A stretch of DNA of 64,000 nt from an uncultured Flavobacteriaceae bacterium (GCA_947493175.1 CANLQD010000001.1:776748-840747); one strand, 5' to 3'. Shown: positions 1 to 31,264, numbered from the stretch's first letter. Program-made: numbers and translations. Notes: generated by a model not told the origin, from the letters alone.

Positions 1-2336
1 TGTCTCGAAAAACCCGCGAGGATGCGTAAGCGCTCCTCGGGAAAGTCTTCCGGTATGAGTCTCCTTTGAAGACTTTCAAAATCGAATTGCTCCTCCTGGG
101 TGGCTACATATCCGGCCTCGTTCCCGTAGACGGCCAGCAGCGACTGCTCGCATTCGGCACAACTTACGAAACAACCATCTTCCACATCGGGGAAGGGTTC
201 AGCCAATTCCGGGTTAATATAGCAATCCTCGGCGGGATCCATCAATTTCGCGATATAGGCATCGGCATATTCCTCCAAGGTGTCAGGATTCACGACCAAA
301 TTCTTCACAATGCTAAAAGCACCCCTTGAGAGGTTCAGCTCAAAATCGGAGGGGTCAAAATTGGCCCTATCCGTGATATAAGAAGCCCCATTGGCATCCA
401 GTACATCTACGAACAAATCATACTCGACGGCCCCTGTGAAGCATTCGAAGGTAAAATCGGTCTGCGCCAACGTATAGCGAAAAGTTCTTCGTTCATCAAA
501 AGGAGCCTGCTTGGTACCGGTGTAGACCAGCGCATCTTCCAATGCACCGAACGTCTGGGTTGCCGATCGGCGGTTGTTATCGGCCTTCGTATCCGAATCG
601 GTCGCCCTTCTCTTTCCTAACAGATCTGCGGTCACGTTGAGATGCAAAGCGGCATTTGTTTCATCTTCCAACGGGTCCAGGTTTGCGGGGGCATCCCCTA
701 ATAAAGCGGTAGCAATGGTGCGCCCCTGCGGATCTATATAGCTAACACTGCGTTGACCGTTGGGATCAATGACCATATTCTTTTTATAGTGTTGGCCGTA
801 CCCTACACTATACCCGAACAAGCGGTTCAGCTCCTTTTGTTCCGGGGTGCCATAATAGTACTCCATTTCATGGGTACTCCCCAGCTTATGGGTGACCCCT
901 ACCCCACTTTTACGGCGAATGCGCCCGGTATTGTCGGGCGTGTACTCAATCTGCGAAAAGGGGTATGCCGCCGCATTTGGAATACGTGCCTTAAAAGGTT
1001 CGTCCACATCGTTTTGATCGGAATAGTATTGGCTCGCACCGCTCTGGGTAGCCATTCCCTTGTCGGCAGTGGCATCGTCCAAAATATTTTGAGCGTCAAA
1101 ATCGAAATCCCGAAAGGTATAGACCTCCCCGGCACTGTTTCGGTTAAAGGGGCTGGCCCCATTGTCAAAATCCCCCAAATAGTCAATGGCAGAAGCGGTG
1201 GCAGTCGAGACAGGCACTGGCAATACTTCCACTGCTGGGCGTCCCTGAGCATCATAGATGACCTCCCCGACGATGACATGATCATCCGAATTTATCTTGG
1301 TGACCGTTTGTCGGTTGCGAAGCGTTCCGTCAAAATAGCTGACCACCTCTTTTTTCTTACCATCCTCGGCATAGGACGCCTGAAACTGCCAGTTTTTGTT
1401 CTCTTGATGATCCGAGTTCAACACGTACACCCGGTTCCAATCATCGAGGGTTATGGCCTGATTGTCTTCTCCATCACTCCAGGGACCAAATACATAGCTT
1501 TTCAGGTCTTCTGGACTGATTCCCACTGCTCGGACTCGATATACCAAATACCCTTTGGAATATATTAAGGGAATGGTGTATTGGGTACCTGTGGTCTGTA
1601 CCCGGGTACTATTTCCTTCAAAATCCCTTTTGGTAAAAGGGATGGTCGTCGGTGCCCGCATGGGTCCGTCGTAATTATCGGCATTACCATCGTAGCCGTC
1701 GATCCAAGTCCATTCCACATCATAGGAAATAGCACCGTCCTGGGCAGACCAGTTCAGTTCCAACTCTTTTCCGGAAGCGTTGGCGCTCGCTACCGAGACA
1801 TTGGGGGGGAACGCCGTGTCCAAGATTTCATAACGATCGGCGGTAAAACCGATTTCGAGCATCACATTCACCGGAACCGTGGTATTGGACACCGAATTGT
1901 CAGGGAGGGTGGTATAGGTACCTCCCACAACTTGAACCCGCGCCCCGTAGGCTCCCATAAATACTTGTTTACCGATATCGACAGATAGGCTCCCGGCCCC
2001 TGCAATCGTATTATTTTCCACGGTTAAAGTAATATTCGAGGGCGTTCCGGTAAACGAACCGTCGGCCGCCGCGGGAACGATGTTCAATTCCAAGGCATAA
2101 GAGTACCAATCACTTACCGGAACCTGCGGATCTAGCAAAAGGCTTACATGGGCCATGGGATTTCCATTGACCAAGCCAGAACGGTCCAAATTAGGCGTCA
2201 CATATTGTAGGGTGGCATTGGTAACCAACTGGGTGTTGTCGAAAATGACGCTTTCCTGAGCGTAGAAGAACCCCATCCATAGAAAAAGGCTACAGCATAT
2301 TCCATTTCGTAGTTGCGCGATGGTCTTTATTGGCAT
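1..2336 (-). CDS. N-terminal part of a giant secreted RHS/YD-repeat protein (DUF6443-like entry motif, FN3-like domain); runs off the left edge
   Basis: Not in the ORF track because it has no stop in the window. Translated by hand from ATG at 2336 (MPIKTIAQLRNGICCSLFLWMGFFYA|QESVIF...), and the same frame reads through to base 1 (...LIPEDFPEERLRILAGFSR). Contains KKEVVSYFDGTLRNRQTVTKINSDDHVIVGEVIYDAQGRPAVEVLPVP (~1210-1380) and VIDPNGQRSVSYIDPQGRTIA (~715-800), both YD/RHS-like. Also an FN3-like LELNWSAQDGAISYDVEW...YRVRAVG segment. Confidence 0.8.
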   Translation of the reverse strand, partial: MPIKTIAQLRNGICCSLFLWMGFFYAQESVIFDNTQLVTNATLQYVTPNLDRSGLVNGNPMAHVSLLLDPQVPVSDWYSYALELNIVPAAADGSFTGTPSNITLTVENNTIAGAGSLSVDIGKQVFMGAYGARVQVVGGTYTTLPDNSVSNTTVPVNVMLEIGFTADRYEILDTAFPPNVSVASANASGKELELNWSAQDGAISYDVEWTWIDGYDGNADNYDGPMRAPTTIPFTKRDFEGNSTRVQTTGTQYTIPLIYSKGYLVYRVRAVGISPEDLKSYVFGPWSDGEDNQAITLDDWNRVYVLNSDHQENKNWQFQASYAEDGKKKEVVSYFDGTLRNRQTVTKINSDDHVIVGEVIYDAQGRPAVEVLPVPVSTATASAIDYLGDFDNGASPFNRNSAGEVYTFRDFDFDAQNILDDATADKGMATQSGASQYYSDQNDVDEPFKARIPNAAAYPFSQIEYTPDNTGRIRRKSGVGVTHKLGSTHEMEYYYGTPEQKELNRLFGYSVGYGQHYKKNMVIDPNGQRSVSYIDPQGRTIATALLGDAPANLDPLEDETNAALHLNVTADLLGKRRATDSDTKADNNRRSATQTFGALEDALVYTGTKQAPFDERRTFRYTLAQTDFTFECFTGAVEYDLFVDVLDANGASYITDRANFDPSDFELNLSRGAFSIVKNLVVNPDTLEEYADAYIAKLMDPAEDCYINPELAEPFPDVEDGCFVSCAECEQSLLAVYGNEAGYVATQEEQFDFESLQRRLIPEDFPEERLRILAGFSR

Positions 2337-2357
2337 CTGTCTTGAGTATTTTCTTGG

Positions 2358-3080
2358 TTATTCGTTTTTTTTGCTTTGGTCTATAAGGCGATAGGCGGTA
2401 TAGGCATCGGCCGCTTTCCGTTGTCCCGAGGATTCCGTAATAAAATCCTCCAAACGCATTTCGGTTATCGTTTCACCAATACGATGTTTTAGATCGATGA
2501 CCAAACGGCCATAGTCTTGCTCGGTATCGCCATTCTTATTGGTAAATGGTATGGGGGTCGAGAAAAAGAGTATTTGTTTATTGATACGGTAATCGTCCTT
2601 ATTAATGTGAAGAACTACCTTCCCATAAGGCAGCTGGGAAAAGGTATTGTTCTCCGGGACCATTTCACAGATATATTCGTTTCCGGAATTAATCAGTTGT
2701 GTCTTTTTAAAATATTGGAGATAGACTGTAAGGTCTACCGGCGTTTCCTGTGCCGCGCCTTCTTTGAAAGATTCGTAGGTCATGGTCTTTTGGTTTTCAT
2801 CCAATACAATTTTCGCCTGGGGAAAAAGGTATACCGTGGTTTCACGTGCTTGGTTCCGCTGAAAACGACCTTTTTTTTCAAAAGTGCCCTCATAAGTTTC
2901 AACGGCCATCGTACTTTCAAAACCACGGTGCAGCCCAAATGATATCGCGACCTTATACTCCGAAAGTCCTTTGTAAAACGTACTAGACTTTTGCAGGATA
3001 CTCCCAACGGTTTCTTCTTGGGCGACCAAGGATGAAAACATGAAAGCAAATAGCAATGCCGTTATCGTTTTTCTATTCAT
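2358..3080 (-). CDS. Periplasmic LolA-like (lipoprotein carrier fold) protein
   Basis: 240 aa with signal peptide ending LVA|QEE. Pattern of N-terminal helix, then F.....YEGTFEKKG, then KIVLDENQKTMTY resembles LolA-family proteins. TAATG overlap with the upstream giant gene at 3080. Confidence 0.55.
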   Translation of the reverse strand: MNRKTITALLFAFMFSSLVAQEETVGSILQKSSTFYKGLSEYKVAISFGLHRGFESTMAVETYEGTFEKKGRFQRNQARETTVYLFPQAKIVLDENQKTMTYESFKEGAAQETPVDLTVYLQYFKKTQLINSGNEYICEMVPENNTFSQLPYGKVVLHINKDDYRINKQILFFSTPIPFTNKNGDTEQDYGRLVIDLKHRIGETITEMRLEDFITESSGQRKAADAYTAYRLIDQSKKNE

Positions 3081-6000
3081 TATCGACTACCGTTTAATTT
3101 TGAATTTCCCGATCGTGTTTCCTGTATGGTATAAATACCTCGTTCGGTCTCTTTTTTGACCCGTACCAAACCTCCTTCGGTATCATACTCGTAGTACGTG
3201 GCGTAGTTGTTCTCGTCCAACTCAGCCTGTAATCGCTGAGTAACTGGATTATAAACGAATGATTTTACGTTGCTATCGATCGGGTGCATACGTACATCGT
3301 CAAAATAGGCATTGGTACCATCTAAATCGGTTATGAGGTTCATTCGCATATAGGCAGCCTGCGCAGGAATGCGGAACACATTGGATATGCGTTGCCAACC
3401 ATCGATAACCGCCCCTTTGGGCTCTAACACCCGTTCGGTATCCGCAAGGTTTATGGGATTGCCATCGATATCCTTGTATTCTAACTGTATCGAAGTATTG
3501 TCATAGTTGATTACGGAGTAATCCGGATTTTCGATGTAATCAAAAATCTCGGTAGTGCCTTCTATTCCTGAATTGGCGGCTCCGTCGGTATCGTAGTTCG
3601 CATAGGTACCTTTTAAGACGGAATCCTCTGGGAGATCAAGCAAAAAACTGGAATTAACTCGTAGGCGATCGCCCGGGATAATACTCACACTATGATGTTC
3701 GATTTCGAGATTTTCGTAGTTTAAGATTGGATAGTTATACCCGAGTCCAAAATCGAGTGGTATTCCAAAAATGCTGCCAAAAGATAGTACTACTTGTGGG
3801 GTACGATACTCCATACGATTGGTCCCCGATGGGTCAAGGGCAAAGGAGTACCCTATACTACGCTCCAACCCATCAATATTTTCCTTCTCAAACCTGAAAT
3901 CGTAAACGGTGACGTTGTTCCCGGCAAAATCTTTGAGATAGGGCAGCACAGCACTCATATCTAGCTCGGGGAACAGATCTTTTACCACAAATTGGCTCGG
4001 TATTTCCAGTACTTCACCTACAATAGTGTTGGTGAGACTATTGAACAAGGCCAGTACCGCCTCCTTGGCCGAATCATCGAGATTAAACTCTATGGTCCCC
4101 GCAGGTTGAGCAGTCAATGCTTCTTCACGTACCCAACCGCTAACGACATATTCACGACCGGGCTGCGGTACGAATTTGATGCAGGTAACCAAATCGGGTT
4201 CGGTTATGTCGTCTAACTCCACAGTAATCGCCAAAACCCTGAGCCCGGCACAAAGGCCCTCATCAATTCGGGCGTAGTAGGTATTACCGGCGGATAAGTT
4301 AGTGGTCTCGAAATAGGGCGAACCGCCAAAGGCCTGATTGTACCAAACGGTAGATTCATCCAAGCGATAATAGGTGGTAATATCAGAAACCGTGCTGCCA
4401 TCGGGAAATAGCACGTCCCATTCGTAAATTTTAGCATTGGCTTCTTCATCTATGACCGATACGCGTACCGGTAATCGATTCTCACTAAAATCGCTTCCAT
4501 TGGTCTGCACCGCATAATAGGTGGCCCCATTGACCAAGAGATCGGCACCATTCAAAGGAGAACCCCCTTCGGAAGAATCGTACCAGTCTATGGTATAGGC
4601 CGGATTCGTGGGTTGCATGGCCAAATTATCTACGGTAGGTTCCGCCGAACTACAGAATTCCTGAAATGTGCTACCGATTGGGACGGGTATTTCGATATTG
4701 ACCAATACCGGTACCCGGCAAAAATTACCATCCTGTGCGGCATAATACACCTGTTCGTCGGTTAAAGAGGTGTTCAACGGTAATTCTACGCTATCGAAAA
4801 AAGAACTGTGCCAGGTGATGTTGATTCCTGTAACCGTTACATCGGCCAAGGTAGGGTTTTCATTCAAGTCAAAAGTCTGGTATTCCAACGCCTCCGGAGC
4901 GCCTAGGTCAAAAATAACTTCCACGGCAATTCGAGAGCCCGAACCGCTGTCTGCCCAAAGGATGGGTTCCAAATCGTACAATATATCGGAAGTGCTATAG
5001 GGGATCCCTCCTACGGGATCGGCATACCAAAATGTAGAAGAGCCCTGAGGCGGTGCCAAATCACCAACGATTGGCGGGTTATCCTCCGCATTGTTACAGA
5101 ACACCTGTGTTTCAATACCATAACATGCGGTAGTGAAAGGGTCGGTTGGTTTTTCGTAGACTCGCACCCCGTCCAACAACATATACACAGGATAGGAGTT
5201 TGAGGGATCATTTGCGGTAGCCTGCGGAGCAAATCGAAGGGTGGTTGAACCTGCCGAGGCCGTAAACTCCAACAAGGCCCTTTGCCAGCGAACATTTCGG
5301 GTACTCGCCGTCATCGGGTTCGATTCCAACTGTTCCCCCGATGCCTGTACCTCCCAAGAACCAAAAGCTTGGTCTACTATTCGAGTGTCCAATAAATTAG
5401 TAGCGTTTGCCTGGTAAAATTGAACGACATAGGTAGTTCCCGGCACCAATCCGTTGACCGTAGTGGTAATGGCCTCAGCGGTATTACCAACCCTGAGGGC
5501 ACCAAAACAGTTGCCCCCGTCGGGTGATGCCATAAAACTATTGAAAAGATAAGGGTCCCCGCTATTTACGAATGGCGTAGCAAATGTGTCAGGATCTCCC
5601 TGGGCCACAGACCATCCGGAGACTTCAAAGGTAGCGTTTCTAGCTTGAGTACTGGCCCCTACCGCTGTTTCAAAACTTCCGTCGGCGATGCTCGATAAGA
5701 GGTCGGTACATTCAGTCGCTGGGGTACATGTTTCAGTAGTTGAAATGGTTTCGGTCGTCTGGTCGGTGCCATCGGTGTCTTGCCAAGCTATTTGTACCGT
5801 ATTATCACCTACTTCCGTATTGGTGGTAAAACGAGTAATCCCCGGTGCCGCCATAAGCGTTCCCGATTGTGAGGTTCCGACCACCTGCCAATTGATCGGG
5901 ACATTTTGGCCATTCGGATTGTTGACTTCCCAATTGCGAAGATTCGTCGGGTTGTCAGAACAAGTAGCGACCAATGAAAGGGCATCCAAGGGAAGAAGCA

Positions 6001-9000
6001 CCCGCTCCAAGAGATTGATTTTTCTTCTGGTGAGCTGTAGCACATCAATGACTGTATTGGAAGCTACAAACCAATACTCCCCTGTATCCGCTACCGGGTC
6101 AAAATCGGTGATGGTCAGGCTACTTCCTGTTTCACCGGGTATCTCAACCCCATCTTTGTACCAGACATAGGTATTATTGGGACTCGAAAGATCTTCCGTT
6201 CCGAGGGTGACATCATCATTTTCCAATACTCGGATGGTTTCCTGCCGGTCTACCAAGGCTTGGGGGTCGTAGGTAAAAATATCCAGTCCGTTTAGATAAG
6301 CAGGATATTCCGCTTCAAAATTGCTGAACACAAAATTATTGTACTCAATAGCCACCTCGGTGTTCGCCACATTGAAATCAGGAATCAATAGCGGGATGTC
6401 ACCTCGAAAGGCATTGTTGTTCAAGCGCACACTACGTAAGGCAGGAATGGTCGAAATTGTTTCAGGAAGTTCCCCGCCGAAATCGTTGTTGGCCAACCAA
6501 AACTCCTCCAACTGGGAGAGATTACCTATGGCACTGGAAATACTTCCGTTCATCTGGTTGTTGGAAACATTGAATCGAATAAGCCCAGGAATACTATAAA
6601 GACTGGTTGGAATACTCTGGACCAATTTGTTATCATTGGCATCAAAATACTGAAGTTGTTGCATGCCCCCCATAGTATCGGGAAGGGCACCGGCAATACG
6701 GTTGTTGGCAATGTCAAATTCGCTTAAGGCGGAAAGGTTTCCGACGGATAATGGAATGGCTCCGACCAGAATATTATCGTTCAGCAGCAAGTACTGCAAA
6801 TTCGCCAAAGCCCCTATGTTATCGGGTATTTGACCAATGATGCTATTTTGCTGTAAATCTATCGATGTTAAAGAGCCCAACTGTGAAAGGCTATTGGGTA
6901 TTTCTCCTCGTAACCCATTGTTGGCAAGGGCTAGACCTGTAACATTGGCATCTACGTCTGTTACGACCCCATACCAATCGCAGACGGGAGCGCTTGTATT
7001 CCAATTGGTGTTAACGGTCCAATTTGGCCCATCGAGGGCATTGTACAAGGCAATCAATGCGTTCCGTTCCAAATCGGAAACCCCACAGGCATCATTCCCG
7101 GCACTGACCTCTAACATGATCATTTCCCTCTCAAGATCAAGACCGGTGACAACACTGTTGGTAGCAGAAAAGTGGTATCCTCCATTATCCGTGGTGGTCA
7201 CATTGGAGAGTATCAGGTCTTTATTCGTTTCACCATCAAGTGGCAATCCGTCTTTAAACCATTGATATTGGTTGTTACTACTGTTCAACACGGTACTTGA
7301 AAGTGTGATGGTTTCACCTGCTTCTGCAGTTTGCTGCTCAGCTTCATCCACATTTGCCTGTGGTGAAAAAGTGAAATTGGCACCTAACTGTCCAAAGAGT
7401 GTCGTGAAGTCCGATTCTAAATCTGTAAAAATGTATTTGTTATTCTCAAGCGCAAGTTGATTAAGGCTTAGAATACCTGTAAAACGCCCTGAAATAAAAC
7501 CACTTAGGTCGTTTCCTGAGAAATCTACCCTTTCTAGCGAAGGAAAAGCGGCAAAAACATCCGGTAGGTTTCCATTGATATTATTATTTGGCAATACGAT
7601 TTCAGTAACGGAATTGTCTACCACCGTTACCCCGTACCAGTCACAGACCAACGAATTGGTATTCGTAATACCCCATATTTGATTACTCGCAGTAGTATTG
7701 TTCCAATTGGCCCCTCCTGTTGCATTGTATAATGTAATTAACGCCTGACGTTCCGATTGATTTACGTCACAGGTGGTTATCACGTTCAAGGTAATCGAAT
7801 TCCGGGTCAACTCAAGCCCTTGTACGGTGCTATTGGAGGCAATGAAGTAATAGGTGCCAGCATCTTCGGCCGTTGCATCCTCAATAAGCAATTCATTGCC
7901 GACCGCATCTGGAATTACCTCATCGGGACTGCTAGCCTTGTACCAGACATAGCTATTGTTAGAACTATTGAGATCGGTCGAAAGGGTAATATCGTTTCCT
8001 AGGGTCACAGATACCGTACTTTCGGTATCTGTATTAGCCTGAGGTGTGTATTCATAAGTAGCCAAAGTACCTGTATAGCCATTGTGTCGCGATTCGAAAT
8101 CGGAAAAGATAAAACGGTTATTTTGGAAGGTGAAAAGCGTTAGGCCTGAATTGGTACCCGAAAAGGGTATAGAACCCGACAACTGATTGTTTTGTACAGC
8201 TATCTCTCTAAGGTTGCCCAATCGGGTCAGTTGGGATGGCAACCTTCCAGTAAGCTGATTGTTTGAAAGATCCAGGCGAACCAAGCTGGCCATCAGTTCA
8301 AACTGTGTCGGTATACTTCCAAAAAGTCCATTATTGGACAGATTCAAATCGGTTACATTTGTAAGGTTACAAAATGAAATTGGGATTTGGCTTTCCAAGT
8401 TGTTGTTAGACAAGTCCATTCTCGTCAGGTTTGATAAGCTGCCCAACGCTGGGGGCAGCTCCCCGGTCAAGCCATTATTGGGAAGAAGCAATACATCCAG
8501 ATCCAATAGCGAACCCAAAGAAGGCGGCAATCCCCCCTGAATACCGTTATTACTTAAATCCAATAGGTTCAAATCGATCAAGTTCCCGATGCTTTCGGGC
8601 AATGTACCGATAACATTGTTGTTGGGTAATTGAATATTGACCAATTCGCCATCTACGACCGTAACACCAAACCAATCACAAACAGGAACTTCGGTATTCC
8701 AGTTGGTACTATTGACCCATGTAGTACCTCCGGTCGCATTATAAAAATCAACAAGGGCCTGTCTTATCGTATCGGAAACACCACAAGGTGCAAGTTCGGA
8801 ATTGAGGGTCCAATTACCACTGGGCTTCTCACATTGCTGGCGGGTCTCAGCTCCTGAATCGGCGAAGCCGTCTTCGTTTTCATCCGCATACCAAATGGTA
8901 TCCGGGTTATAAAGCTGCCCGTCTGCTGCGGGATCGTCGTTACAATCATCTACAGGTAGTACGGTATTCGTGTATCCTGCCCCGGGCGATCCACAGTTGG

Positions 9001-17792: not shown

Positions 17793-17834
17793 AAGAGATG
17801 CTTATTTTAAAACTACATTTGTTAAAAGCTGCTC

Positions 17835-19217: not shown

Positions 19218-19321
19218 TTTCTTTGGTTTGGTTATTCTCGATGGTTTTCGAATATTACTCTAATGGTATTTATTACTATTTAAGTTTGTAAGAGGGCGTG
19301 AACCTTTGCATGCCTGTTCAA

Positions 19322-19831: not shown

Positions 19832-19858
19832 TATATCGTCGAAAGATGAAGGAAACAC

Positions 19859-19872
19859 TCAAATATATTTGA
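19859..19872. promoter_or_regulatory. Perfect 14-bp palindrome TCAAATATATTTGA containing a Bacteroidota -7 box (TATATTTG) on both strands
   Basis: Read directly from the sequence; lies 28 bp upstream of the OmpH-like ATG in the gap after the pilus/T2SS-like genes. No clear -33 TTG found. Confidence 0.4.
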
Positions 19873-19918
19873 AAAAAAAATCTTATAAAAGTAGAACGTT
19901 AAAAAAAAATTAAAAAAG

Positions 19919-21361: not shown

Positions 21362-21872
21362 AATTCTGAAATATTATTTGTTCATACAATCGCTTCTTTC
21401 TAGTTCTCGGTTCTCTTTCAATATAGAAATGCAAGCCTACCACACGGGAATAGTCGAATTCCTTCTCATAGTAATAAGTGGCCTTTAATAGTCCTTTATA
21501 GCTACCGGACAAAATCAGCCTATTGGTATAAATATTAAAATATTCGTTTTTAGCAATATGGATTTCCTCTAATCTCACCAGTTCTGATCTGGAGGATATG
21601 CTGTTAAAAGTATTCAGGATTTCCTGCTGAACCACATCGGCACTGGCGGCTTGCTTTCCGATAATCCGGTCCAAATATGTCACATCGCTCTTAACCGAGG
21701 CTATTTTCTGCTGAGAATTACTTACTTCTAAGAGTTTGGTCCTTGAAGACTGCAGATTTTCATAAGCATCAAAAGCCAAAGAGAAAGATCTTTTGTAAGC
21801 GGTAAACCCCATAATTGCCAATAAGGAAATCAAAGCAAAAAATTTCTTTCGATAAGAAATATTTTCAAACAT
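21345..21872 (-). CDS. PilO/GspM-like component
   Basis: 175 aa; N-terminal TM, coiled coil, ferredoxin-like C-terminus (LILSGSYKGLLKATYYYE); position in the cluster next to the PilMN-like gene. Confidence 0.55.
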   Translation of the reverse strand: MFENISYRKKFFALISLLAIMGFTAYKRSFSLAFDAYENLQSSRTKLLEVSNSQQKIASVKSDVTYLDRIIGKQAASADVVQQEILNTFNSISSRSELVRLEEIHIAKNEYFNIYTNRLILSGSYKGLLKATYYYEKEFDYSRVVGLHFYIEREPRTRKKRLYEQIIFQNYEKIE

Positions 21873-23061: not shown

Positions 23062-24983
23062 TAGTAGACCAATGTTGGTTTAATAAACACATGAAGTTTC
23101 GACTTTTCCTTTGCCCTTCGCTTACTACTAAAAAACCACTTGATTACCGGGATTCTTGAGAGGAAAGGAGTGCCCGTTCCCGAGTTCTCCTTCTCCAACT
23201 CGTCCAATCCACCCAACAAAATCATCTCATTGTTCCTAACACGAATTAAAGACTCGAATTTTTGTGTTGATTTACCAGGAGGTGCGTTTTCCCCGGCACG
23301 ACCCAAGAAAGCGCTCTTTTCAACTACGATGTTCAAAGTAATATGCTCATCTTTTGAAACATAGGGTAGTATATCGACGCTAAGATTTGCCTCGGTCGGT
23401 TTCCATTGGCCCGACTGAAGAATATTGTCATTAACCCCTGAATTTATGAGTCTGTTGGTCTGTTCAAAATAGTAGTTGGTCTCTCCAATGGAAACGTTCG
23501 CTTTATGGCCACTCAAAGTGGCAATTTTGGGCGTAGATTTTAACTGAATAATGGAGTTGTTCTCCAATGCACTCAGATTTGCATAAAAGTTCTCGGCGAC
23601 CTTTCCGATATTGATGATTCCTAAACCATTAAAGGCGTCGATCAACTTATTGATCGAGGTAGAATTTACAGTAGCATCTACTGTTGGGAACAATACTCCT
23701 TCGGTCTTGACATCTTTTCCATCCTCACTTAAAATACCCTGTAGGCCTGTTTGAATGTCATATCCTTTCTGGTATTGTACTATTAGCACCTCAATTTGCA
23801 CCAAAGGAACCACTTTGTCCAATTGCCGAATTACTAATTTTAGTTCCTCTAAAATAGGCTTCGACCCTGAAACCAAAATCCCGTTAAGCTCTACGAATTC
23901 CTGCATTTCCACATCTTGCACATAGGCTTTAGGCAACGTATTTAGAACCGTTTCAATAGTTCTATTTTCTAGTTGTATCAATTCTGTTTGCCGTAGCCCT
24001 TCCGTTGTTTGGAGTCCTATGAGGTACAGATCCTCCAACTTTTTGGAAGTATATCTGGTTCCTTTAAACACATGATCAAGCAGGCTGTCGAAATCGATGC
24101 TGTCCGAATAAAATGTGGATATCACTTCATCGGGCTTATCATAAAAAAAGTAATTGATGTTCAACAAATCGGATGCTTTGGAAATTAGGGTGGTTGCATC
24201 GATTTCATAGGCGCGTATCGTCAAAAAACCCTGCTCGTTCATGTCTAATTCAAGTTCGCCTGGGGCAACGGTGCCCTTTGTATTTCTAGTCGACCCCCTT
24301 CTTCTTGCGGAGGTCCTTCGCCCTTGATCGGGAACCTGGTCCAGCTCCAAAGCTTTGGATAAAAAATAAAACCCATTTTCATCTACGGAAGCAATCAATT
24401 GATTGGAACGGGCAATCATTTCGATTACCTGATCAAAAGGTCTATTGATAATATAAGCCGAAACTTTCATCATTTTTACTTCCGGTGCCAGAACGATATT
24501 CTTATTGGACAGTTCGGTAATTCGCTCTGCCACCAACGGCAGGGAATCGTTCTTTAGTTTTACCGATAAGAAGTCATTTGCCTGATTAAAAGAAATATCG
24601 ATGGGCTTTTTAGGTTTCTCTTTGGGAACGTCTCTTGCGATTTCCCGTTTTCTGAAGGTGATGATTTCGTTCATATAACCTACTTCAAGATTATATTTAT
24701 TGGCTAGAAAAATATAAATATCCCTTACTTTAACATCGAAGAAATTACTGACCACCATCTCTGTAAGTCCAGGGTCGGCACTTACGTTGATTCGATGTTC
24801 CTCTGCCAAGGAGGTTATGATTTCGAATAAAGTTAGTCCGGAGACGTCCAACTCTGTAAGTTCATCGAGACCAGGTCGTTCTTTGGCTACTTCATCGAAT
24901 AACTGTTCCAGCGTTTGTGTTTGGTTTTGGGGGAACGCAATGCCCACAAACAGTATACTGATTACTACTACTACCTTTCTCAT
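23061..24983 (-). CDS. gspD: Secretin (GspD/PilQ family)
   Basis: 640 aa; signal peptide; secretin motifs VQIEVLIV, PKIATLSGHKANVSIGE, VRNNEMILLGGL, GTPFLSRIPVIKWFFSS and LHVFIKPTLV. Confidence 0.92.
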   Translation of the reverse strand: MRKVVVVISILFVGIAFPQNQTQTLEQLFDEVAKERPGLDELTELDVSGLTLFEIITSLAEEHRINVSADPGLTEMVVSNFFDVKVRDIYIFLANKYNLEVGYMNEIITFRKREIARDVPKEKPKKPIDISFNQANDFLSVKLKNDSLPLVAERITELSNKNIVLAPEVKMMKVSAYIINRPFDQVIEMIARSNQLIASVDENGFYFLSKALELDQVPDQGRRTSARRRGSTRNTKGTVAPGELELDMNEQGFLTIRAYEIDATTLISKASDLLNINYFFYDKPDEVISTFYSDSIDFDSLLDHVFKGTRYTSKKLEDLYLIGLQTTEGLRQTELIQLENRTIETVLNTLPKAYVQDVEMQEFVELNGILVSGSKPILEELKLVIRQLDKVVPLVQIEVLIVQYQKGYDIQTGLQGILSEDGKDVKTEGVLFPTVDATVNSTSINKLIDAFNGLGIINIGKVAENFYANLSALENNSIIQLKSTPKIATLSGHKANVSIGETNYYFEQTNRLINSGVNDNILQSGQWKPTEANLSVDILPYVSKDEHITLNIVVEKSAFLGRAGENAPPGKSTQKFESLIRVRNNEMILLGGLDELEKENSGTGTPFLSRIPVIKWFFSSKRRAKEKSKLHVFIKPTLVY

Positions 24984-26416
24984 TATTGGGCTTCAATTAT
25001 AATGGAATATACTTCCTCAATTGAGGTTATTCCTTTTTTTACCAGTTCTATGGCCTTATCGGAAAGCCTTGAAAAATTCTTTTCGGAAACGAAAGAATCT
25101 AGATGGGAGGGTGCTTTCTTTATTTCCTGAGAAAGCGAAGCATCAATCGGGATTACTTCATAGATAGCGGTACGGCCATTATAGCCGGTATAATAACAGC
25201 TTTCGCAGCCTTTCGGACTCCAATGACCGGAAAGGATTTTGAAGGCTCCGTGATGATATTCCCCACCAACAGTATCGCAAAATTTCTTGCAGTCGTTGCA
25301 TAACTTGCGAACCAGTCGTTGGGCCACCGAGATTTTTAAAGTCTCGGCAATCAAAAATGCCGGGACACCCATATCTACTAACCTTGAAATGGTTCCCAAC
25401 GCCGAGTTTGTATGAATAGTCGATAAGACCAAATGCCCGGTTAAGCTGGCGCGGATTGCCATTTCGGCTGTTGCGCCGTCCCTGATCTCCCCTAACATTA
25501 TAATATCGGGGTCTTGACGTAAAAAGGTTCGAAGGGCACTTGTAAAGGTGAGTCCTATCTCTTCTCTTAACTGTACTTGATTAATTCCTTTTAAAGTATA
25601 TTCTATGGGATCCTCAACTGTAACAATATTCGTCTTGATATCGTTCAAAAGTTTTAAACTGGCATATAGTGTAGTTGTTTTCCCAGAACCAGTAGGCCCG
25701 CTTATGAGAATGATTCCTTTTGATGCTTTGAGCGCTTCGAGGTACAGACTTTTTTCGTCTTTGGTCATTCCCAATTTATCAATGCTCAAATGATCTGTGT
25801 CCCTACCCAAAATACGCATTACGATTTTTTCGCCATGGAGGGTAGGAAGAATGGACACCCTAATATCAAAATCATCATAATTTATGCGGCCATCTTGGGG
25901 CAATCTTTTCTCGGTGATATCGAGGTTTGATTTGATCTTAATCTTATTGACAAGTTCCAAATAGTTCTCATTTTCTATTTTATACTTTTCAATAAGCTTT
26001 CCGTCAATTCGATATCTAATGCGCCCGTCATCTTTGAAAACTTCAAAATGGATATCACTGCTCCCGATTGCTTTAGCCTCGAAAATCAGGTCTTGCAAAA
26101 AGTCTTGGGAGGAAATCCTAAAGCTTTTTTCGGTTCCTGCCTGGACGGCAGACTCCATCTCCCGTCCATAATATTGTGATAGTGCCTTAACTACCTTTTC
26201 AGACGGTGCAGGGTATAACCTCACCTTTTTTCCGAGAATTAGCTCCAACTCATCTGACAAGGTCTCGAATAATTTTGACTCGTCAACAAAAAAAGTAATC
26301 ATAGACTCATCCTTTTCCTTAGGAATGATTCCATAATTGTGTGCAAGGTCTGAATTAATGACCTGCTGTTCTTCCGTGGTCAACACTATTTCGGATATCA
26401 TTGGTTGGTTAGTCAA
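24983..26416 (-). CDS. gspE: GspE/PilB-family assembly ATPase
   Basis: Walker A GPTGSGKTTT, VEDPIEY, LRQDPDIIMLGEIRD, GHLVLSTIHTN, and tetra-Cys CNDC...CESC. Start is TTG 26416 or ATG 26401. Confidence 0.95.
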   Translation of the reverse strand: MTNQPMISEIVLTTEEQQVINSDLAHNYGIIPKEKDESMITFFVDESKLFETLSDELELILGKKVRLYPAPSEKVVKALSQYYGREMESAVQAGTEKSFRISSQDFLQDLIFEAKAIGSSDIHFEVFKDDGRIRYRIDGKLIEKYKIENENYLELVNKIKIKSNLDITEKRLPQDGRINYDDFDIRVSILPTLHGEKIVMRILGRDTDHLSIDKLGMTKDEKSLYLEALKASKGIILISGPTGSGKTTTLYASLKLLNDIKTNIVTVEDPIEYTLKGINQVQLREEIGLTFTSALRTFLRQDPDIIMLGEIRDGATAEMAIRASLTGHLVLSTIHTNSALGTISRLVDMGVPAFLIAETLKISVAQRLVRKLCNDCKKFCDTVGGEYHHGAFKILSGHWSPKGCESCYYTGYNGRTAIYEVIPIDASLSQEIKKAPSHLDSFVSEKNFSRLSDKAIELVKKGITSIEEVYSIIIEAQ

Positions 26417-26898
26417 ACAAGTTTGGCTTCAAAAAAATCAAGGTCGGTTATATAAACAATGCATTTCAGGATCAACATGTAAATTGCCAACAATCCTGCT
26501 AATGGCACTAAATTTGTTTTCGAAATCATCTTTATCACCAAGAAAGCGAAAATTGAAAAGAGCATTCCGGTGATGAAGTATAGAATATAGTTTATCGTCG
26601 AAAAGTAAGGTATTACCGCTAAAAAAAAAAGAAAATCTCCTTTGCCTATCGATTTAAAAAGATTTACGAACTTCCTTTCTTTCAACGAAAGATATACGTA
26701 TAATCCTAAACAAGTAACCAATAAGAACAAAAAATTATGCCATAAAATTATTATAGGGTAGGACCTTTCAAAAAAGAGAATTAGTCCAATGAGTATGATT
26801 AACAAAGGTAAAACAATGTGTATAGCCCTCTTTATCATGTCTTGATAAAAAATAAGCAAAAACAATACCCAAAGAACTACCTCTAAAAAAACCACCAC
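26413..26898 (-). CDS. Minimal prepilin peptidase (family A24), no methyltransferase domain evident
   Basis: 161 aa, multi-TM; two catalytic-type Asp in FYQD and IGKGD; adjacent to the pilin gene. Confidence 0.75.
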   Translation of the reverse strand: MVVFLEVVLWVLFLLIFYQDMIKRAIHIVLPLLIILIGLILFFERSYPIIILWHNFLFLLVTCLGLYVYLSLKERKFVNLFKSIGKGDFLFFLAVIPYFSTINYILYFITGMLFSIFAFLVIKMISKTNLVPLAGLLAIYMLILKCIVYITDLDFFEAKLV

Positions 26899-26902
26899 AC
26901 AT

Positions 26903-27343
26903 TTAGTCTTTTACCGTTTCTCTGAGCGACTTTTTACTATCGATTTCCCAGGTATTGTAATTGCCATCATCATCAAAATCTGACAAGGAAGTAGCCGTTG
27001 CACGGAAAGAATTGGTAGAAGCCTCTATTATCTCGATTTTATAGACCGCTTGTCCTCCCTCATCTATGGTCATCGCAGGCTCAAAACCTATTTCCTCAAA
27101 ATCGGAAGAATAACGAGAGTAGCGATAAAAGTGGTTTTTCTGCAAACCGTACAAATGATTAAGCATACTTTGGGCCTCGATAGATTTGGCTTGTGATATG
27201 ACGGAGGTCTGACTTGGCAATACCATCAATAATAAGATTCCAATAATGCACAGCACTATCAAGATTTCAGTCATTGAATAGGCGGCAGCATAGTATCTAT
27301 CCTTCTCGTTTCTTTGCTGAAAACTCTTATTTCCCACGAACAC
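26903..27343 (-). CDS. Major pilin / pseudopilin (PilE/GspG-like)
   Basis: 146 aa; class III signal ...YYAAA|YSMTEILIVLCIIGILLLMVLP with Glu at +5. Confidence 0.85.
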   Translation of the reverse strand: MFVGNKSFQQRNEKDRYYAAAYSMTEILIVLCIIGILLLMVLPSQTSVISQAKSIEAQSMLNHLYGLQKNHFYRYSRYSSDFEEIGFEPAMTIDEGGQAVYKIEIIEASTNSFRATATSLSDFDDDGNYNTWEIDSKKSLRETVKD

Positions 27344-27392
27344 TATAACATTTTTTTAACACAACAAAACTAAACTATTTTTCCGATTTCTT

Positions 27393-28532
27393 TTATCCAC
27401 CGTTGATAATTTTACTTAAATCGAACATAGGTGCGTACATCGCTATCATGATTATTCCGACAATCAATCCGATGAAAATAATAATGAGCGGCTCCAAAAT
27501 CACACCGATCATTTTGGTCTTATGCTCTACTTCCTCCTCATATTCATCTGCCAACCTTGCGAACATACTATCCAACTCGTTGATTTCTTCCGCAACCTCT
27601 ATCATAGACACCAGTTTGTAACCGTAAATAGCATGTTTTGACATGGCTTTTGAAAAAGGTACGCCCTTAATGATATCTTTTTGAATAGGCCCAATAGAGT
27701 TTTCAATAGGGTAGAAACCAATCATCTTTTTTACCATCTGCAACGAATCGGTCAAAGGCGTCTTAGAAGTAAGGAGCAAGTCCAAAAACTGACAGAATCT
27801 GGCGAGATAAATCATTTTTGTAAGTTTTCCGAAATAGGGTATTTTAAGAAGGATTCTGGATTTATAGGAACGAAAAGTATTGTTCTTAGCGTATATTTTA
27901 AAAACACCTGCGCTCAAAAGAAAGACTCCGAAGAGTACCGCTAAAATCGTTGGGAATCTTTCCGATAAAGCAATGATGTTCTCGGTCAACTCAGGTAGGT
28001 CGGCATCGAATTGATTAAACACCGATTTAAACATAGGCACCACATAGGTAAGCATAAAATATAGTACTCCGACAGTTAACGTAAGAACGAACGCAGGATA
28101 AGTAATGACCGAAACAACTTGTTTCCGCAGCCTTATCTGGCGCTTAAAGTATTTGTGCAGTTCAATCAAAACCATGGGTAGTTTCTTGGTCTCTTCCCCA
28201 ATTTTGATACTAAAATATTCATAGGCCGAAAAATGTCCTGTTTTTTGTAGTGCTTCATGAAAACTTCGCCCCCCGACTACTTGGTCCTTAATACCTAGAA
28301 TTAGTTCTTTATTTGATTTCTTTTTTTGTTGATTGGCCAAAATATCAAGCGCAGTACTAAAATCTACACCAGCATTTAGCAATGTATACAAATCCTTGTA
28401 AAGCGCTTCCCGATGCTTTGCCCTTATTTTCTTGGAGAAACTGAACTCTTGATTCAGAAAATCGAAGGAAAAAGAACCAGAGCTCTTTTTTGACTCCGAT
28501 TTCGTGTTTATCTTACTGATGTCAATTCCCAT
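27393..28532 (-). CDS. gspF: GspF/PilC inner-membrane platform protein
   Basis: 379 aa; LYTLLNAGVDFSTAL, IGEETKKLPMVL, YPAFVL, LEPLIIIFIGLIVGIIMIAMYAPMF. Confidence 0.92.
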   Translation of the reverse strand: MGIDISKINTKSESKKSSGSFSFDFLNQEFSFSKKIRAKHREALYKDLYTLLNAGVDFSTALDILANQQKKKSNKELILGIKDQVVGGRSFHEALQKTGHFSAYEYFSIKIGEETKKLPMVLIELHKYFKRQIRLRKQVVSVITYPAFVLTLTVGVLYFMLTYVVPMFKSVFNQFDADLPELTENIIALSERFPTILAVLFGVFLLSAGVFKIYAKNNTFRSYKSRILLKIPYFGKLTKMIYLARFCQFLDLLLTSKTPLTDSLQMVKKMIGFYPIENSIGPIQKDIIKGVPFSKAMSKHAIYGYKLVSMIEVAEEINELDSMFARLADEYEEEVEHKTKMIGVILEPLIIIFIGLIVGIIMIAMYAPMFDLSKIINGG

Positions 28533-29001
28533 AATCAGTTTTATAATCTTGTATACTTAGATACTTTTTAGCCACTTTAAACTGAATAGGCACTTCAAAC
28601 AAGAGAAAGCTCATCTGTGCGCTTTGTATTAGATTTTCGTTCGTATTCGGGTCTTTTATTGAAGAAACATCAATCCTATAGATTCTTAAACTATCTCGAT
28701 TTTGATTCTGTATCCGATACATATATCCTTTTTTAACTTCGTAGTAGCTGCGTGACATATCATACCGTATGGCCTCAAACGAGTTGGTTGTACCCACTAC
28801 TTTCTCAGCCTCAAAAAAATCCGCTTTCAAGCGTAAACAAAAATTGCTCAGTGCAAGCTCCTCGTCTACACCGGAACGATACTCAAAAACCTGTTTTGAA
28901 AAAGAGGAATACACATAGTACACCATCCCAATAATAATCGACATTATGACGATGTTTATCAATACCTCTAATATGGTAAAAGCCTTAAGGGAGGTCTTCA
29001 T
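28522..29001 (-). CDS. Minor pseudopilin (GspJ/PilW-like)
   Basis: MKTSLKA|FTILEVLINIVIMSIIIGMVY with Glu at +5. Confidence 0.8.
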   Translation of the reverse strand: MKTSLKAFTILEVLINIVIMSIIIGMVYYVYSSFSKQVFEYRSGVDEELALSNFCLRLKADFFEAEKVVGTTNSFEAIRYDMSRSYYEVKKGYMYRIQNQNRDSLRIYRIDVSSIKDPNTNENLIQSAQMSFLLFEVPIQFKVAKKYLSIQDYKTDYGN

Positions 29002-29356
29002 TTTGTTTGGTTATCAGGTGGTGATAGGTAATTGTATCGGACTGTGTTACAACAGTATAACTTATTTTTTTTAATCGTTCTAAATCTTCATAGTCAGATA
29101 CATTTTTATGTATTTTAAAAGTTTCGAATTCATATGTTTCAGAATCAAAACTGGGATTTAATTTCATTTCGGAAACCAGTTTGTCTATCTGAAACCTAAG
29201 TCTATGATCATTTGCCGAGGGACGGCCCTCCAGGACCGTGATATACAGTTTGAGTGCGATTAACAGGCAAACAGTAATAATGGTTATCGCTATCACCGAT
29301 TCAATGAGCGAACTTGCAGCTAGATATCCCTTTTTACAAGGTCTTAATGATACCAT
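28985..29356 (-). CDS. Minor pseudopilin (GspI/PilV-like)
   Basis: Start moved to ATG 29356: MVSLRPCKKGYLAA|SSLIESVIAITIITVCLLIALKLY with Glu at +5; 123 aa. Confidence 0.7.
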   Translation of the reverse strand: MVSLRPCKKGYLAASSLIESVIAITIITVCLLIALKLYITVLEGRPSANDHRLRFQIDKLVSEMKLNPSFDSETYEFETFKIHKNVSDYEDLERLKKISYTVVTQSDTITYHHLITKQNEDLP

Positions 29357-30566
29357 AGAAGGTTGTTTCTTGATTATCGAAAAGAGCCGAGTACCTAAAA
29401 CCTCGGGGAATACCAATTGCATCGATGGTACCATTAAGAAGTACATTTTCATAGTTGCCACTTTTGGTTTCCAATTGAAATTTATGGGTATATACCGTTC
29501 CACGAACGGTTCCCTGTAGCTGTAACCTACCGTTGCAGTACAACGCCCCTATGATAAGAGCCTTTTCATTAATAATGATACGGTTATTTTCCTTTTCATC
29601 AAAAGTGTCCCCATTAATAACGACTCCGCCGTAAATCTTGCTATCTCTTGATAAGGTTATTTTTTTTTCAAATAACCCCTTGTTAGCAGGGATGACCAGA
29701 CTGGATGGGTATCCCAACAACACTTCCTCCTCTACCGTAATCTCTTTTTTTGCAAAGAATTGGGCACGCCCTTTAAAGCCTTTACCAATAACAATTTTTG
29801 GGGCCTGTACAATGACATCTTCCAATTTCGTAGAAGATTCAATGTAAAGTGTGTCTTCCGATTTAATCACCACATTTCCCTTGAACGACATGTTGTTAAG
29901 GCGTTCGCCCTTATTCAACTCTATTACTAAGGGCTCCTTCTTAAAGTCATTGTAAATCAGGGATCTTTTATCCATTTTAGAAAGACTCGTGCCTATACTA
30001 TTTTCGCTTTCCGCTATCGGAGTTCCTATGGTAACTTCAGGAAGCAACTGGGAAGATCTAGAAACGGCTCCCTCAAGAATAGGTTTGTTAAGTTGGTTAT
30101 TTCCCAAAATAGTAACCTTTTTATAGCCTGCCGACGGAAGCTCCATCGCTCCTTTTATTAGGGTCAGACCTGATACTTTTAATGGCTCATCCCAATCACA
30201 AACTACCAGCGCTAGCTTTTTCACAGTATCTCGGGGCCCAACAAAGGCTCTTTTTTGAACCGTATCATTTTTAAAAAATGCCTGTACCGTTAATAGGGTG
30301 AATGATCCCCATTTTTTTTTTGAAAAGCCACAAAGAAGGCCGTTGTTAAAGAGGTCTAATTGCTCGGTAGTGAATTCTGAGAAATTATTTGGGTCGGATA
30401 GGTAAAATTCAATACAGGAATCACATAAATCAATTAAATCTGACTGAATTGCCTGTCGCGTGGAAAGCTGTAAATTATAGTTAAAGATAAAAATGAGTGC
30501 GGCGCTCATTACTGAAATCAAAAGGCAGACATACACTGCATACAACAAAGATCCCGCCTTTACCAT
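29334..30566 (-). CDS. Large tip pseudopilin (GspK/PilX-like)
   Basis: 410 aa; MVKAG|SLLYAVYVCLLISVMSAALIF (no Glu+5, as expected for K/X-type); repetitive beta-rich C-terminal half. Confidence 0.65.
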   Translation of the reverse strand: MVKAGSLLYAVYVCLLISVMSAALIFIFNYNLQLSTRQAIQSDLIDLCDSCIEFYLSDPNNFSEFTTEQLDLFNNGLLCGFSKKKWGSFTLLTVQAFFKNDTVQKRAFVGPRDTVKKLALVVCDWDEPLKVSGLTLIKGAMELPSAGYKKVTILGNNQLNKPILEGAVSRSSQLLPEVTIGTPIAESENSIGTSLSKMDKRSLIYNDFKKEPLVIELNKGERLNNMSFKGNVVIKSEDTLYIESSTKLEDVIVQAPKIVIGKGFKGRAQFFAKKEITVEEEVLLGYPSSLVIPANKGLFEKKITLSRDSKIYGGVVINGDTFDEKENNRIIINEKALIIGALYCNGRLQLQGTVRGTVYTHKFQLETKSGNYENVLLNGTIDAIGIPRGFRYSALFDNQETTFYGIIKTL

Positions 30567-31264
30567 TTTAAACTACTACTGTTGTTTTGTCTTCCTCTGA
30601 TTTTTTGATTTTTTGATTTTTTCTTTTTTTCCCGTTTTTTGGACTTCGGAACTGCGTCATTCACTTTTTGCTCCTTTAGAATACTATCCTTTTCCTTTTT
30701 TCTAAAAAGTTCTTCGAAGAAACCCGTTGCCCGCTTGATAAAGGGCTTTCTAGTATATCTTTTGGGTTTTTCGATTTCGACTCCCTTTTTAAAAAACATG
30801 GTATCCTTGATAGCACCATTGACCCAAATACCATTCTTCCTGTTGTTTTTGAAGTTCCCCCCAATTAAAAGTTCTCCTGTCTCAGAAAATTGGAGATACC
30901 TGCCAGTTCGCAAACCATTATTCCAATTGGCTATTTCATGTAATTGTCCATTTCGATACCATTTTTTCCATCGACCGTTTTTAAGTCCCTTTTTAAAACT
31001 TCCTTGCTCAGCAAGATTATTGTCCTTGTAGCTCTTCGTATAGTCACCATGCAATAAGTTTCCTGTACTACCTCCTAGTGATGAATGAATCTCACCTGAT
31101 TTGTACCAATGATAATACTTTGCACCTTTCACAGAAACACTTTCCTTCGTAGTTACATAGAAAATGTAGTTGAATTCGCTATCAGAAATTATTTTACGCT
31201 GAACGTTTTTGTCTGGAAACAAAAAAACGGATAGTACAAAAAAAACAGTTAGATAAAATTTCAT
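30560..31264 (-). CDS. MORN-variant repeat protein (YwqK-like) with Lys-rich tail; first gene of the locus
   Basis: Repeats such as LLHGDYTKSYKDNNLAEQGSFKKGLKNGRWKKWYRNGQLHEIANWNNGLRTG; hydrophobic N-terminus; very basic C-terminal ~60 aa. Confidence 0.7.
   Translation of the reverse strand: MKFYLTVFFVLSVFLFPDKNVQRKIISDSEFNYIFYVTTKESVSVKGAKYYHWYKSGEIHSSLGGSTGNLLHGDYTKSYKDNNLAEQGSFKKGLKNGRWKKWYRNGQLHEIANWNNGLRTGRYLQFSETGELLIGGNFKNNRKNGIWVNGAIKDTMFFKKGVEIEKPKRYTRKPFIKRATGFFEELFRKKEKDSILKEQKVNDAVPKSKKREKKKKSKNQKIRGRQNNSSSLKW

Follow-up and report, generated by a model that had tools for sequence, protein, structure and literature searches.

We report that a locus in an uncultured marine Flavobacteriaceae bacterium joins a type IV filament machine to an Rhs polymorphic-toxin operon in what is apparently one transcription string. 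The locus occupies positions 1-31264 of the window, by which we mean the whole stretch of 64,000 nucleotides that was analysed (GCA_947493175.1 CANLQD010000001.1:776748-840747), and its 20 genes, g20 to g01, form two adjacent, separable modules (Table 1). Module 1 (g20-g08, 19919-31264, 13 genes) is the filament machine of Bacteroidota that derives from the type IVa pilus (T4aP) and is called type II secretion system (T2SS)-like, while module 2 (g07-g01, 1-19858, continuing past the window) is a conserved Rhs polymorphic-toxin operon with its accessory set. Coupling of the machine to the giant proteins of module 2 is well supported genetically, and its recurrence across many Bacteroidota suggests an undescribed export route for Rhs toxins. 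What is new is that a machine already known, but substrate-less, is coupled in conserved fashion to an Rhs toxin operon; we found no paper in the literature connecting the two in Bacteroidota.

The evidence for coupling comes from both sides of the locus. We scanned species-representative genomes for the family of g04, the 2156-aa core protein of module 2, which returned 431 stretches from which 80 loci were kept, and compared all 21 window proteins with them. Of these loci, 71 carry at least 8 kb of upstream sequence, and in 33 of the 71 machine genes are found no more than 10 kb upstream of g04; by a rough estimate, a ~12-kb single-copy cluster would fall that near a random gene of a 4-6 Mb genome with a chance of ~0.5%. 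A core machine gene is present in 29 loci, with the collinear layout of the window in 24 and a divergent one in five, and in one Flavobacterium locus the gene order is reshuffled. Among the linked genera are Pelagihabitans, Allomuricauda, Flavivirga, Aquimarina, Mesonia, Psychroserpens, Winogradskyella, Tenacibaculum, Gilvibacter, Olleya and Flavobacterium. Approached from the machine, six secretin loci were compared (L083, L084, L086, L169, L170 and L171), five of which have an Rhs-type module in the neighbourhood: downstream in three, upstream and ending in Imm44 in one, and as a convergent FG-GAP/RHS giant in another, the exception being Aquimarina MAR_2010_214 (L083). The linked loci come from related species, so their counts cannot be taken as independent; more weight falls on the fact that the linkage has outlasted inversion and rearrangement. 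An earlier reading of the window from its sequence alone, the original prediction, had claimed this coupling and proposed the neighbourhood comparison as its check, and on both counts the giants prove to be linked to the machine well beyond chance.

The same prediction treated the locus as one self-contained pathway, which does not hold, since the modules occur apart and toxin modules can be multi-copy. In Aquimarina sp. MAR_2010_214 the machine stands alone at 3.04 Mb and the toxin module at 4.57 Mb of one contig, and an OmpH-like gene, g05, g04 and g03 are found without the machine in L001, L008, L011 and L012. We place the module boundary at the 60-bp gap 19858/19919 on the strength of this separate occurrence. 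Genomes with several toxin modules have at most one next to the machine; in Aquimarina sp. MMG016, A. rubra, Hyunsoonleella pacifica and a Psychroserpens isolate, one out of two or three is so placed. Where the module lies away from the machine, the genome still encodes the secretin (Aquimarina MAR_2010_214, A. macrocephali, A. atlantica, A. hainanensis and Aquimarina sp. 2201CG5-10). In the window itself, an open reading frame (ORF) check bears out the predicted layout of 20 consecutive, tightly packed minus-strand genes in a common orientation, with overlaps or gaps of at most 104 bp at their junctions (about 105 bp had been claimed) and TAATG stop/start overlaps at all three expected places, 3080, 23061 and 24983; the leftmost ORF, g01, runs past the window edge and lacks its C-terminus. 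Scans of the locus for sigma-70 promoters, a model ill-suited to Bacteroidota, and for terminators returned hits at chance level, so a single operon is neither backed nor contradicted by them, and no public sequencing runs containing the region were found.

The toxin of module 2 is encoded by g01. The window copy stops at residue 778, leaving the RHS part, the tip and the immunity gene outside, and a homologue search with this truncated protein gave fragments of at most 1343 aa; full-length copies were obtained from a metagenome scan seeded with the g01 N-terminus, which yielded 80 loci. In 78 of these the C-terminal domain of g03 is encoded upstream of g01, as is g04 in most loci that reach far enough. 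Complete orthologues span 2900-3935 aa, with DUF6443 near residue 320 and RHS/YD repeats past ~2000; they match Rhs_assc_core (TIGR03696, 35 bits, cutoff 32.5), TIGR01643 over its cutoff and RHS_repeat (PF05593), and share the core consensus ...YRYGFQGQEKDDEIKG.EGNS.NY..RMHDPR.GRFFA.DPL.... Beyond the core come hypervariable tips, formed by the last ~260-340 aa: 7/378 pairs are similar over the final 250 aa, as against 330/378 over the 250 aa before these, and tip domains include Tox-PL-2 (E 2e-18), Peptidase_M23 (E 2.5e-17) and DUF4329. A small immunity-like ORF begins 3-20 bp past the stop codon, several loci carry orphan 'core + tip' genes downstream, each followed by another small ORF, and L171 has an Imm44 immunity gene. 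Judged by sequence, these features are the established signature of Rhs toxin/immunity systems in interbacterial antagonism. With a variable tip, immunity-like genes and orphan cassettes, g01 is thus likely to act in antagonism between bacteria rather than in the display of a particle.

The g01 orthologues share YD repeats, core, variable toxin, immunity gene and orphan cassettes with Rhs polymorphic toxins linked to type VI secretion systems (T6SS) and with WapA of Gram-positive bacteria, but differ from them in that the RHS part has a Sec signal, DUF6443 and about 2000 aa ahead of it. Unlike T6SS Rhs proteins, they come with no PAAR, VgrG or Eag chaperone that we could find in g01, its orthologues or its neighbours; their partners are instead g04, a protein with the g03 C-terminal domain, LolA3 and a Skp-like chaperone. 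The arrangement is also reminiscent of the BC component of Tc toxins, in that two giant genes are consecutive, the earlier encoding a weak SpvB-like motif at its N-terminus and the later closing with an Rhs core and a variable toxin. Here, however, the SpvB match is under the Pfam cutoff, the proteins carry Sec signals, and no FG-GAP propeller, TcA gene or Tc fold match was found. We also considered TANFOR, another class of Bacteroidetes polymorphic toxin whose export route was inferred from gene neighbourhood (PMC7073777), and rejected it for want of a TIGR02542 match; in contrast to TANFOR toxins and to type IX secretion system (T9SS) cargo, the neighbourhood here is a type IV filament machine. 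Two-partner secretion (TPS) of the CdiA/CdiB kind was likewise looked for, and none of the 20 proteins matches a TpsB Omp85/POTRA or TPS domain.

The core protein of module 2 is g04, a family with more than 2500 homologues in the protein collection; its signal peptide is followed by a near-invariant N-terminal motif of ~90 aa (ALTSGPSQPE...GIPDDF; 73% mean column identity across classes). Its only Pfam match is TSP_3, the thrombospondin type 3 repeat, and neither Pfam nor NCBIfam gives an RHS or YD match; against the PDB, the sequence and a 32-sequence profile recover thrombospondin repeats only, and a profile of the motif recovers nothing. The motif matches SpvB (PF03534) weakly in 25/27 members, at best with E 3.7e-4 and 18 bits (cutoff 22) and over profile positions 20-71 only, and DUF6531 in 10/27. 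Two AlphaFold2 models (predicted local distance difference test, pLDDT, of 68 and 73) leave the motif disordered and lay out residues ~104-440, at a low confidence of pLDDT ~40-46, as long antiparallel strands with alternating hydrophobic residues, for which the sole Foldseek matches, weak ones, are outer-membrane barrels. The ~1700 residues that follow are modelled at pLDDT 73-90 and include about 1500 aa with no confident fold match; Foldseek searches with the second half gave heterogeneous weak matches, among them teneurin and T6SS Rhs at E ~1e-2 and probability <0.1. From these models, g04 represents a large family with no confident known fold that is possibly membrane-anchored. We dropped the idea of g04 as a TcA-like translocator, given that it is mostly beta and has no matching fold. 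As side observations, the models place two ~30-residue beta strands at residues ~1458-1519 (window 11600-12800), predicted to form a very long hairpin with a low-confidence tip, and one of the weak Foldseek matches is to the binary-toxin translocase CDTb.

The second complete giant, g03 (~2535 aa; 2555 aa from the start at 10744 in the database gene call, with an alternative ATG at 10684), is conserved across loci only at residues ~2421-2530, a domain of ~110 aa (window ~3083-3412) whose consensus from 141 copies ends in two hairpins resembling YD repeats. A search of 1.84 billion representative proteins with this domain found 4579 at E<=0.001 and 3194 at E<=1e-10, in carriers of 138-4726 aa, and the domain sits at or near the extreme C-terminus in 150/150 of the listed carriers. 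In Flavobacterium, g03 has shrunk to a protein of ~185 aa consisting of the domain alone, and in L033, L039 and L043 the domain is fused to the end of g04 (~16000-16700 in each) with no separate g03, an arrangement from which we argue that it docks on g04. A variable passenger followed by a conserved terminal domain is reminiscent of T9SS cargo, but the g03 domain is unrelated to the type A and B domains of that system. Neither type A (Por_Secre_tail) nor type B (CHU_C/TIGR04131) was found in g03 or g04 at E<=0.1, as had been predicted for the two complete giants, and their candidacy as T9SS cargo was dropped. The passenger carries leucine-rich repeat (LRR) blocks at residues ~650-860 and ~1200-1450 that are of the plant receptor-kinase type with an LRRNT_2 cap; their best PDB matches are GSO1, FLS2 and HSL1 (E down to 1e-118), which is unusual for a bacterial protein. 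The original prediction counted all three giants as RHS proteins. In our hands g01 is the only bona fide Rhs protein, g04 having no confident RHS or Tc fold or family match and g03 consisting of LRR and immunoglobulin-like (Ig) domains with a short C-terminal domain resembling YD repeats, so that a three-giant RHS particle is unsupported.

Around these giants, module 2 is a fixed unit made of an OmpH-like protein, a ~200-aa lipoprotein, g04, a g03-like gene, often LolA3, and the DUF6443 giant, and it is also found in one Saprospiraceae and one Sphingobacteriales genome. Among the genome loci, g05 or OmpH is upstream of g04 in 59/77 (g05 in 58/77), and downstream of g04 come g03 in 73/76, g01 in 57/68 and LolA3 in 40/68. 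In L087 and L088, from Saprospiraceae and Sphingobacteriales, the homologues of g04 and of the DUF6443 giant are split over consecutive ORFs, possibly through assembly frameshifts or pseudogenisation. Family matches over cutoff substantiate the predicted Skp-like gene (g07; OmpH, PF03938, 37.7 bits, cutoff 32.4) and LolA-like gene (g02; a full-length LolA3_fam match of 165.5 bits, cutoff 83, with no match in the PDB). Locus comparison shows that both go with the giants and not with the machine; g07 remains with the toxin module where the machine is absent (L001, L008 and L011). The remaining gene, g06, is present in some loci only and at varying positions, and has no match in Pfam, NCBIfam or the PDB. 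LolA3_fam was defined on Fjoh_0605 of Flavobacterium johnsoniae (PMC11885536), which De Smet et al. (2025) named LolA3 and handled as a separate locus and an orphan paralogue (PMC11885536), and a 2026 structure paper reports that Porphyromonas gingivalis LolA3 (PGN0947) does not pair with LolB. In contrast to its published status as an orphan paralogue, LolA3 is placed here inside an Rhs toxin operon, which suggests a client and a role for it.

For module 1, searches of Pfam and NCBIfam confirm most of the predicted assignments, namely MORN_2, pilin-like proteins with N_methyl, T2SSF, T2SSE, Secretin, a weak PilN and an Ig-like lipoprotein. The predicted peptidase, g14, has no family match of its own; its orthologues match Peptidase_A24 (PF01478), and the motifs YQDMIKR and GKGD are present. 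Compared with a classical T2SS, the superfamily domains Secretin, T2SSE and T2SSF are clear, but scores fall far under the GspD, GspE and GspF equivalog cutoffs: 122 bits for GspD (cutoff 351) and 106 for PilQ (cutoff 284) in g12, 458.9 for GspE (cutoff 630) and 457 for PilB (cutoff 675.65) in g13, and 235.6 for TIGR02120 (cutoff 424) in g16. The major pilin g15 reaches 21.6 bits for GspG (cutoff 88.85), with weak Pfam matches to ComP_DUS/N_methyl. No GspC, GspL or GspM match exists at the locus, where a PilN-like protein is found instead, and relative to the type IVa pilus the gene order differs, the secretin standing ahead of the PilMNOP-like genes.

Several genes of the machine are recognized by position. 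The g20 orthologue (230-273 aa) comes first in the module in all six secretin loci, g19 (a weak Bactofilin match only in Pfam) is kept as a 404-407 aa protein in orthologous clusters and would be a minor pilin, and a 173-176 aa gene corresponding to g10, which has no Pfam or NCBIfam family match, follows the PilMN-like gene in 6/6 secretin neighbourhoods. The position of g11 in the cluster is likewise conserved, and g09 is conserved as a gene of 317-320 aa; g08 has no family match. HHpred matches to PilM/N/O/P have been published for the Cytophaga orthologues of the machine genes (PMC5553014). Of the smaller pilin-like proteins, g17 has weak ComGF/GspH-like matches in NCBIfam, and g18, with no Pfam match, probably starts internally near ...KKGYLAASSLIES. 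The secretin g12 has 728 homologues at E<=1e-10, those named among the 120 matches listed belonging to Flavobacteriaceae/Flavobacteriales. An AraC/HTH_18 regulator gene directly follows the machine in L086 (14992-15729), L170 (15044-15862) and L083 (15336-16388) and, where both modules are present, an AraC-type regulator often lies between them, making it a candidate regulator of the system. In a Flavobacteriales metagenome-assembled genome (L169, 4961-7371), the machine cluster is interrupted between GspF and the pilin/ATPase genes by a phage-type integrase and two more genes.

This machine has been described before. In Cytophaga hutchinsonii it corresponds to CHU_3191-3202, with F. johnsoniae orthologues Fjoh_0611-0622 (Wang et al., 2017; PMC5553014), and the gene set and order of module 1 equal the F. 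johnsoniae list: minor pilins, GspF, pilin, short peptidase, GspE, secretin and PilMN/O/P-like genes. C. hutchinsonii machine mutants lose cellulose use and have altered outer-membrane profiles (PMC5553014), and Denise et al. (2019) place the Bacteroidetes system on a branch with T4aP and suggest that it may be an independent secretion system (PMC6668835). Unlike in these accounts (PMC5553014, PMC6668835), which name no direct substrate and describe no neighbouring Rhs/LolA3 module, the machine cluster is here joined to that module in one gene string. F. johnsoniae appears to have the same machine/LolA3 arrangement: Fjoh_0605 and Fjoh_0611 are six locus tags apart, in keeping with the divergent layout of the Flavobacterium loci L042, L048 and L080, and we infer which Fjoh genes are the homologues of g04 and of the Rhs giant.

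We lean, with some reserve, towards reading the machine and the Rhs module as a functional pair in which the machine exposes or releases a chaperoned Rhs toxin complex. All products of module 2 would reach the periplasm via Sec (signals were assigned by eye), where the Skp-like protein and LolA3 would hold intermediates that are very large or hydrophobic. Seating of the complex at the outer membrane may then fall to the g05 lipoprotein and the beta-barrel-like part of g04, and through the g03 C-terminal domain the variable LRR/Ig passenger, a candidate arm for target binding, may dock onto g04. The machine, a pseudopilus extending through its own secretin, would be needed to expose or release the complex, after which the variable C-terminal toxin would act on neighbouring bacteria while the immunity protein protects the producer. 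Module 2 offers no other export signal among those looked for (T9SS C-terminal domain, PAAR, VgrG and TPS domain). The data establish gene content, family membership, the Rhs toxin architecture of the orthologues and the conserved linkage, whereas all physical interactions and the dependence of export on the machine are things we infer. Several points weigh against such a pairing. The modules can occur apart, and over half of the toxin modules have no machine beside them. The Rhs cocoon is of such dimensions, relative to the channel of a T2SS secretin, that passage of a folded 3000-aa Rhs protein is doubtful. The g01 of the window is cut before its RHS part, so that its own toxin tip and immunity gene are unseen, and the beta-barrel reading of g04 depends on a low-confidence part of the model. 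Finally, deletion of lolA3 in F. johnsoniae gave no phenotype in gliding or T9SS assays (PMC11885536), and the extracellular protein profile of C. hutchinsonii machine mutants was unchanged, with no direct substrate identified (PMC5553014).

In the main rival reading the Rhs module would export itself, in a two-partner or inverse-autotransporter manner, with the barrel-like part of g04 as outer-membrane translocator or anchor, assistance from Skp, LolA3 and the beta-barrel assembly machinery (BAM), and the machine serving as a pilus that brings about cell-cell or surface contact for contact-dependent toxin delivery. The chaperones and the lipoprotein do belong to the toxin module and not to the machine, toxin modules stand alone at other sites, residues ~104-440 of g04 have alternating beta strands and match only outer-membrane barrels, and the machine groups with T4aP and not T2SS (PMC6668835). 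We nevertheless regard self-export as fairly unlikely: no Omp85/POTRA, TPS or autotransporter family match was found, the barrel region is a low-confidence prediction, and linkage this tight is more usual for machine-substrate pairs. A contact pilus is further disfavoured by the lack of a PilT/PilU retraction ATPase within the 20-gene locus, which has one T2SSE-family gene (the rest of the genome was not searched). It is less probable again that the two modules have no functional link, their adjacency reflecting inherited synteny or a shared insertion hotspot while the Rhs protein exits by T9SS, vesicles or lysis and the machine serves adhesion, DNA uptake or other export. Integrase, ParB and SSB genes flanking the machine clusters in L084, L086, L169 and L170 would suit a hotspot, as would the frequency of unlinked toxin modules, and Ig_7 domains, which g03 carries, are elsewhere a typical feature of T9SS cargo. 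Yet the linkage persists through inversion, rearrangement, regulator insertion and many genera and is seen from both directions, no T9SS C-terminal domain was found in g03 or g04, and the flank of the window is housekeeping and not an island. Least probable to our mind is the model of the original prediction, in which three RHS/YD shell subunits are folded by Skp and LolA into one particle that passes through the secretin. The two YD-like hairpins of the g03 domain, its fusion to g04 in some genomes, and the faint likeness of the g04 N-terminus to SpvB/TcB and DUF6531 are in keeping with it; against it stand the absence in g04 of an RHS/YD match or a confident Tc, Rhs or teneurin fold match, the LRR/Ig make-up of g03 and its reduction to ~185 aa, and the nature of g01 as a polymorphic toxin and not a structural shell alone.

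The functional pair we favour has a bolder form, which we offer tentatively as possible and somewhat improbable: the Bacteroidota T4aP-derived machine would be a dedicated secretion system with Rhs toxins and proteins bearing the hitherto unnamed ~110-aa C-terminal domain (>4500 representative proteins), which would serve in sorting or docking, as its clients, the g04 family as outer-membrane receptor or anchor, and LolA3 and the Skp paralogue as private chaperones. If true, a new pathway for toxin delivery would exist in parallel with T6SS and T9SS. At the level of the coupling itself, the Rhs toxin complex becomes a candidate client for the Bacteroidota 'T2SS-like' machine, whose substrates lack definition, LolA3 gains a candidate role in place of its orphan status, and two large uncharacterised families are defined, the g04 giants and a C-terminal domain found in thousands of proteins. 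Should the coupling be real, it would reveal a new polymorphic-toxin delivery route in a phylum dominant on marine particles, in soils and in guts. F. johnsoniae offers a direct test organism, for which a lolA3 mutant already exists.

Table 1. Genes of the filament machine (g20-g08) and of the Rhs module (g07-g01), in order of reading, with positions in the window.
Gene	Position	Strand	Assignment and features
g20	30560..31264	-	Secreted MORN-repeat protein, opens machine module; Pfam MORN_2 30.9 bits, cutoff 29.6
g19	29334..30566	-	410 aa, N-terminal hydrophobic segment; candidate large minor pilin (GspK/PilX-like)
g18	28985..29503	-	Minor pilin-like; hydrophobic helix with Glu at +5
g17	28522..29001	-	Minor pilin, class III signal KA|FTILE; Pfam N_methyl E 0.004
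g16	27393..28532	-	GspF/PilC inner-membrane platform; Pfam T2SSF E 2.3e-42, two copies
g15	26903..27343	-	Major pilin; NCBIfam PilA_Myxo E 6e-11, GspG E 2e-4, both far under cutoff
g14	26413..26898	-	Short prepilin peptidase, A24-like, without methyltransferase domain; 161-aa membrane protein
g13	24983..26416	-	Sole GspE/PilB-type assembly ATPase; Pfam T2SSE E 9.5e-122
g12	23061..24983	-	Outer-membrane secretin; Pfam Secretin E 1.7e-32
g11	21865..23061	-	PilM-PilN-like fusion, 398 aa; weak Pfam PilN E 4.8e-4, residues 307-393
g10	21345..21872	-	PilO-like bitopic protein (putative role)
g09	20402..21361	-	Ig/FN3-like lipoprotein; Pfam Ig_Rha78A_N E 1.4e-7; lipobox-like LLFCQC
g08	19919..20401	-	PilP-like protein, closes machine module and the stand-alone Aquimarina cluster L083
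g07	19322..19858	-	Skp/OmpH-like periplasmic chaperone, first Rhs-module gene; likely ATG 19831
g06	17835..19217	-	460-aa secreted protein, C-terminal coiled coil; variable accessory gene
g05	17199..17792	-	197-aa lipoprotein, conserved partner directly upstream of g04; lipobox FFSNC
g04	10716..17186	-	2156-aa core protein; signal peptide, N-terminal motif, beta-barrel-like region, TSP3 repeat, variable tail
g03	3080..10744	-	Variable passenger: 6x Ig_7, two plant-type LRR blocks, Ig_3 (Pfam), and conserved C-terminal domain
g02	2358..3080	-	LolA3-family periplasmic protein; NCBIfam NF053579 LolA3_fam E 1.3e-48
g01	1..2336	-	N-terminal 778 aa of DUF6443 Rhs polymorphic toxin; DUF6443 E 1.9e-11

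Beyond the locus, window positions 34-64 kb hold housekeeping genes (PdxA, FabH, AccC, IlvD and prolyl oligopeptidase), so the surroundings are ordinary chromosome with no obvious island. Among them are two adjacent plus-strand ORFs of 660 and 467 aa (46279-48261 and 48280-49683) that match no Pfam family at E<=1e-5. On the same strand as the locus, 235 bp upstream of g20, a gene at 31500-34085 encodes a lipoprotein-like DUF5118/DUF5117/DUF4953 Met-zincin (E 3e-118), which is not kept beside the machine in other genomes. The G+C content is 44-51% over the giant genes (window 1-18000), as against 37-41% over the filament-machine genes (20000-32000), and 40-46% in the remaining window; given the contrast between them, the two modules may have different histories.

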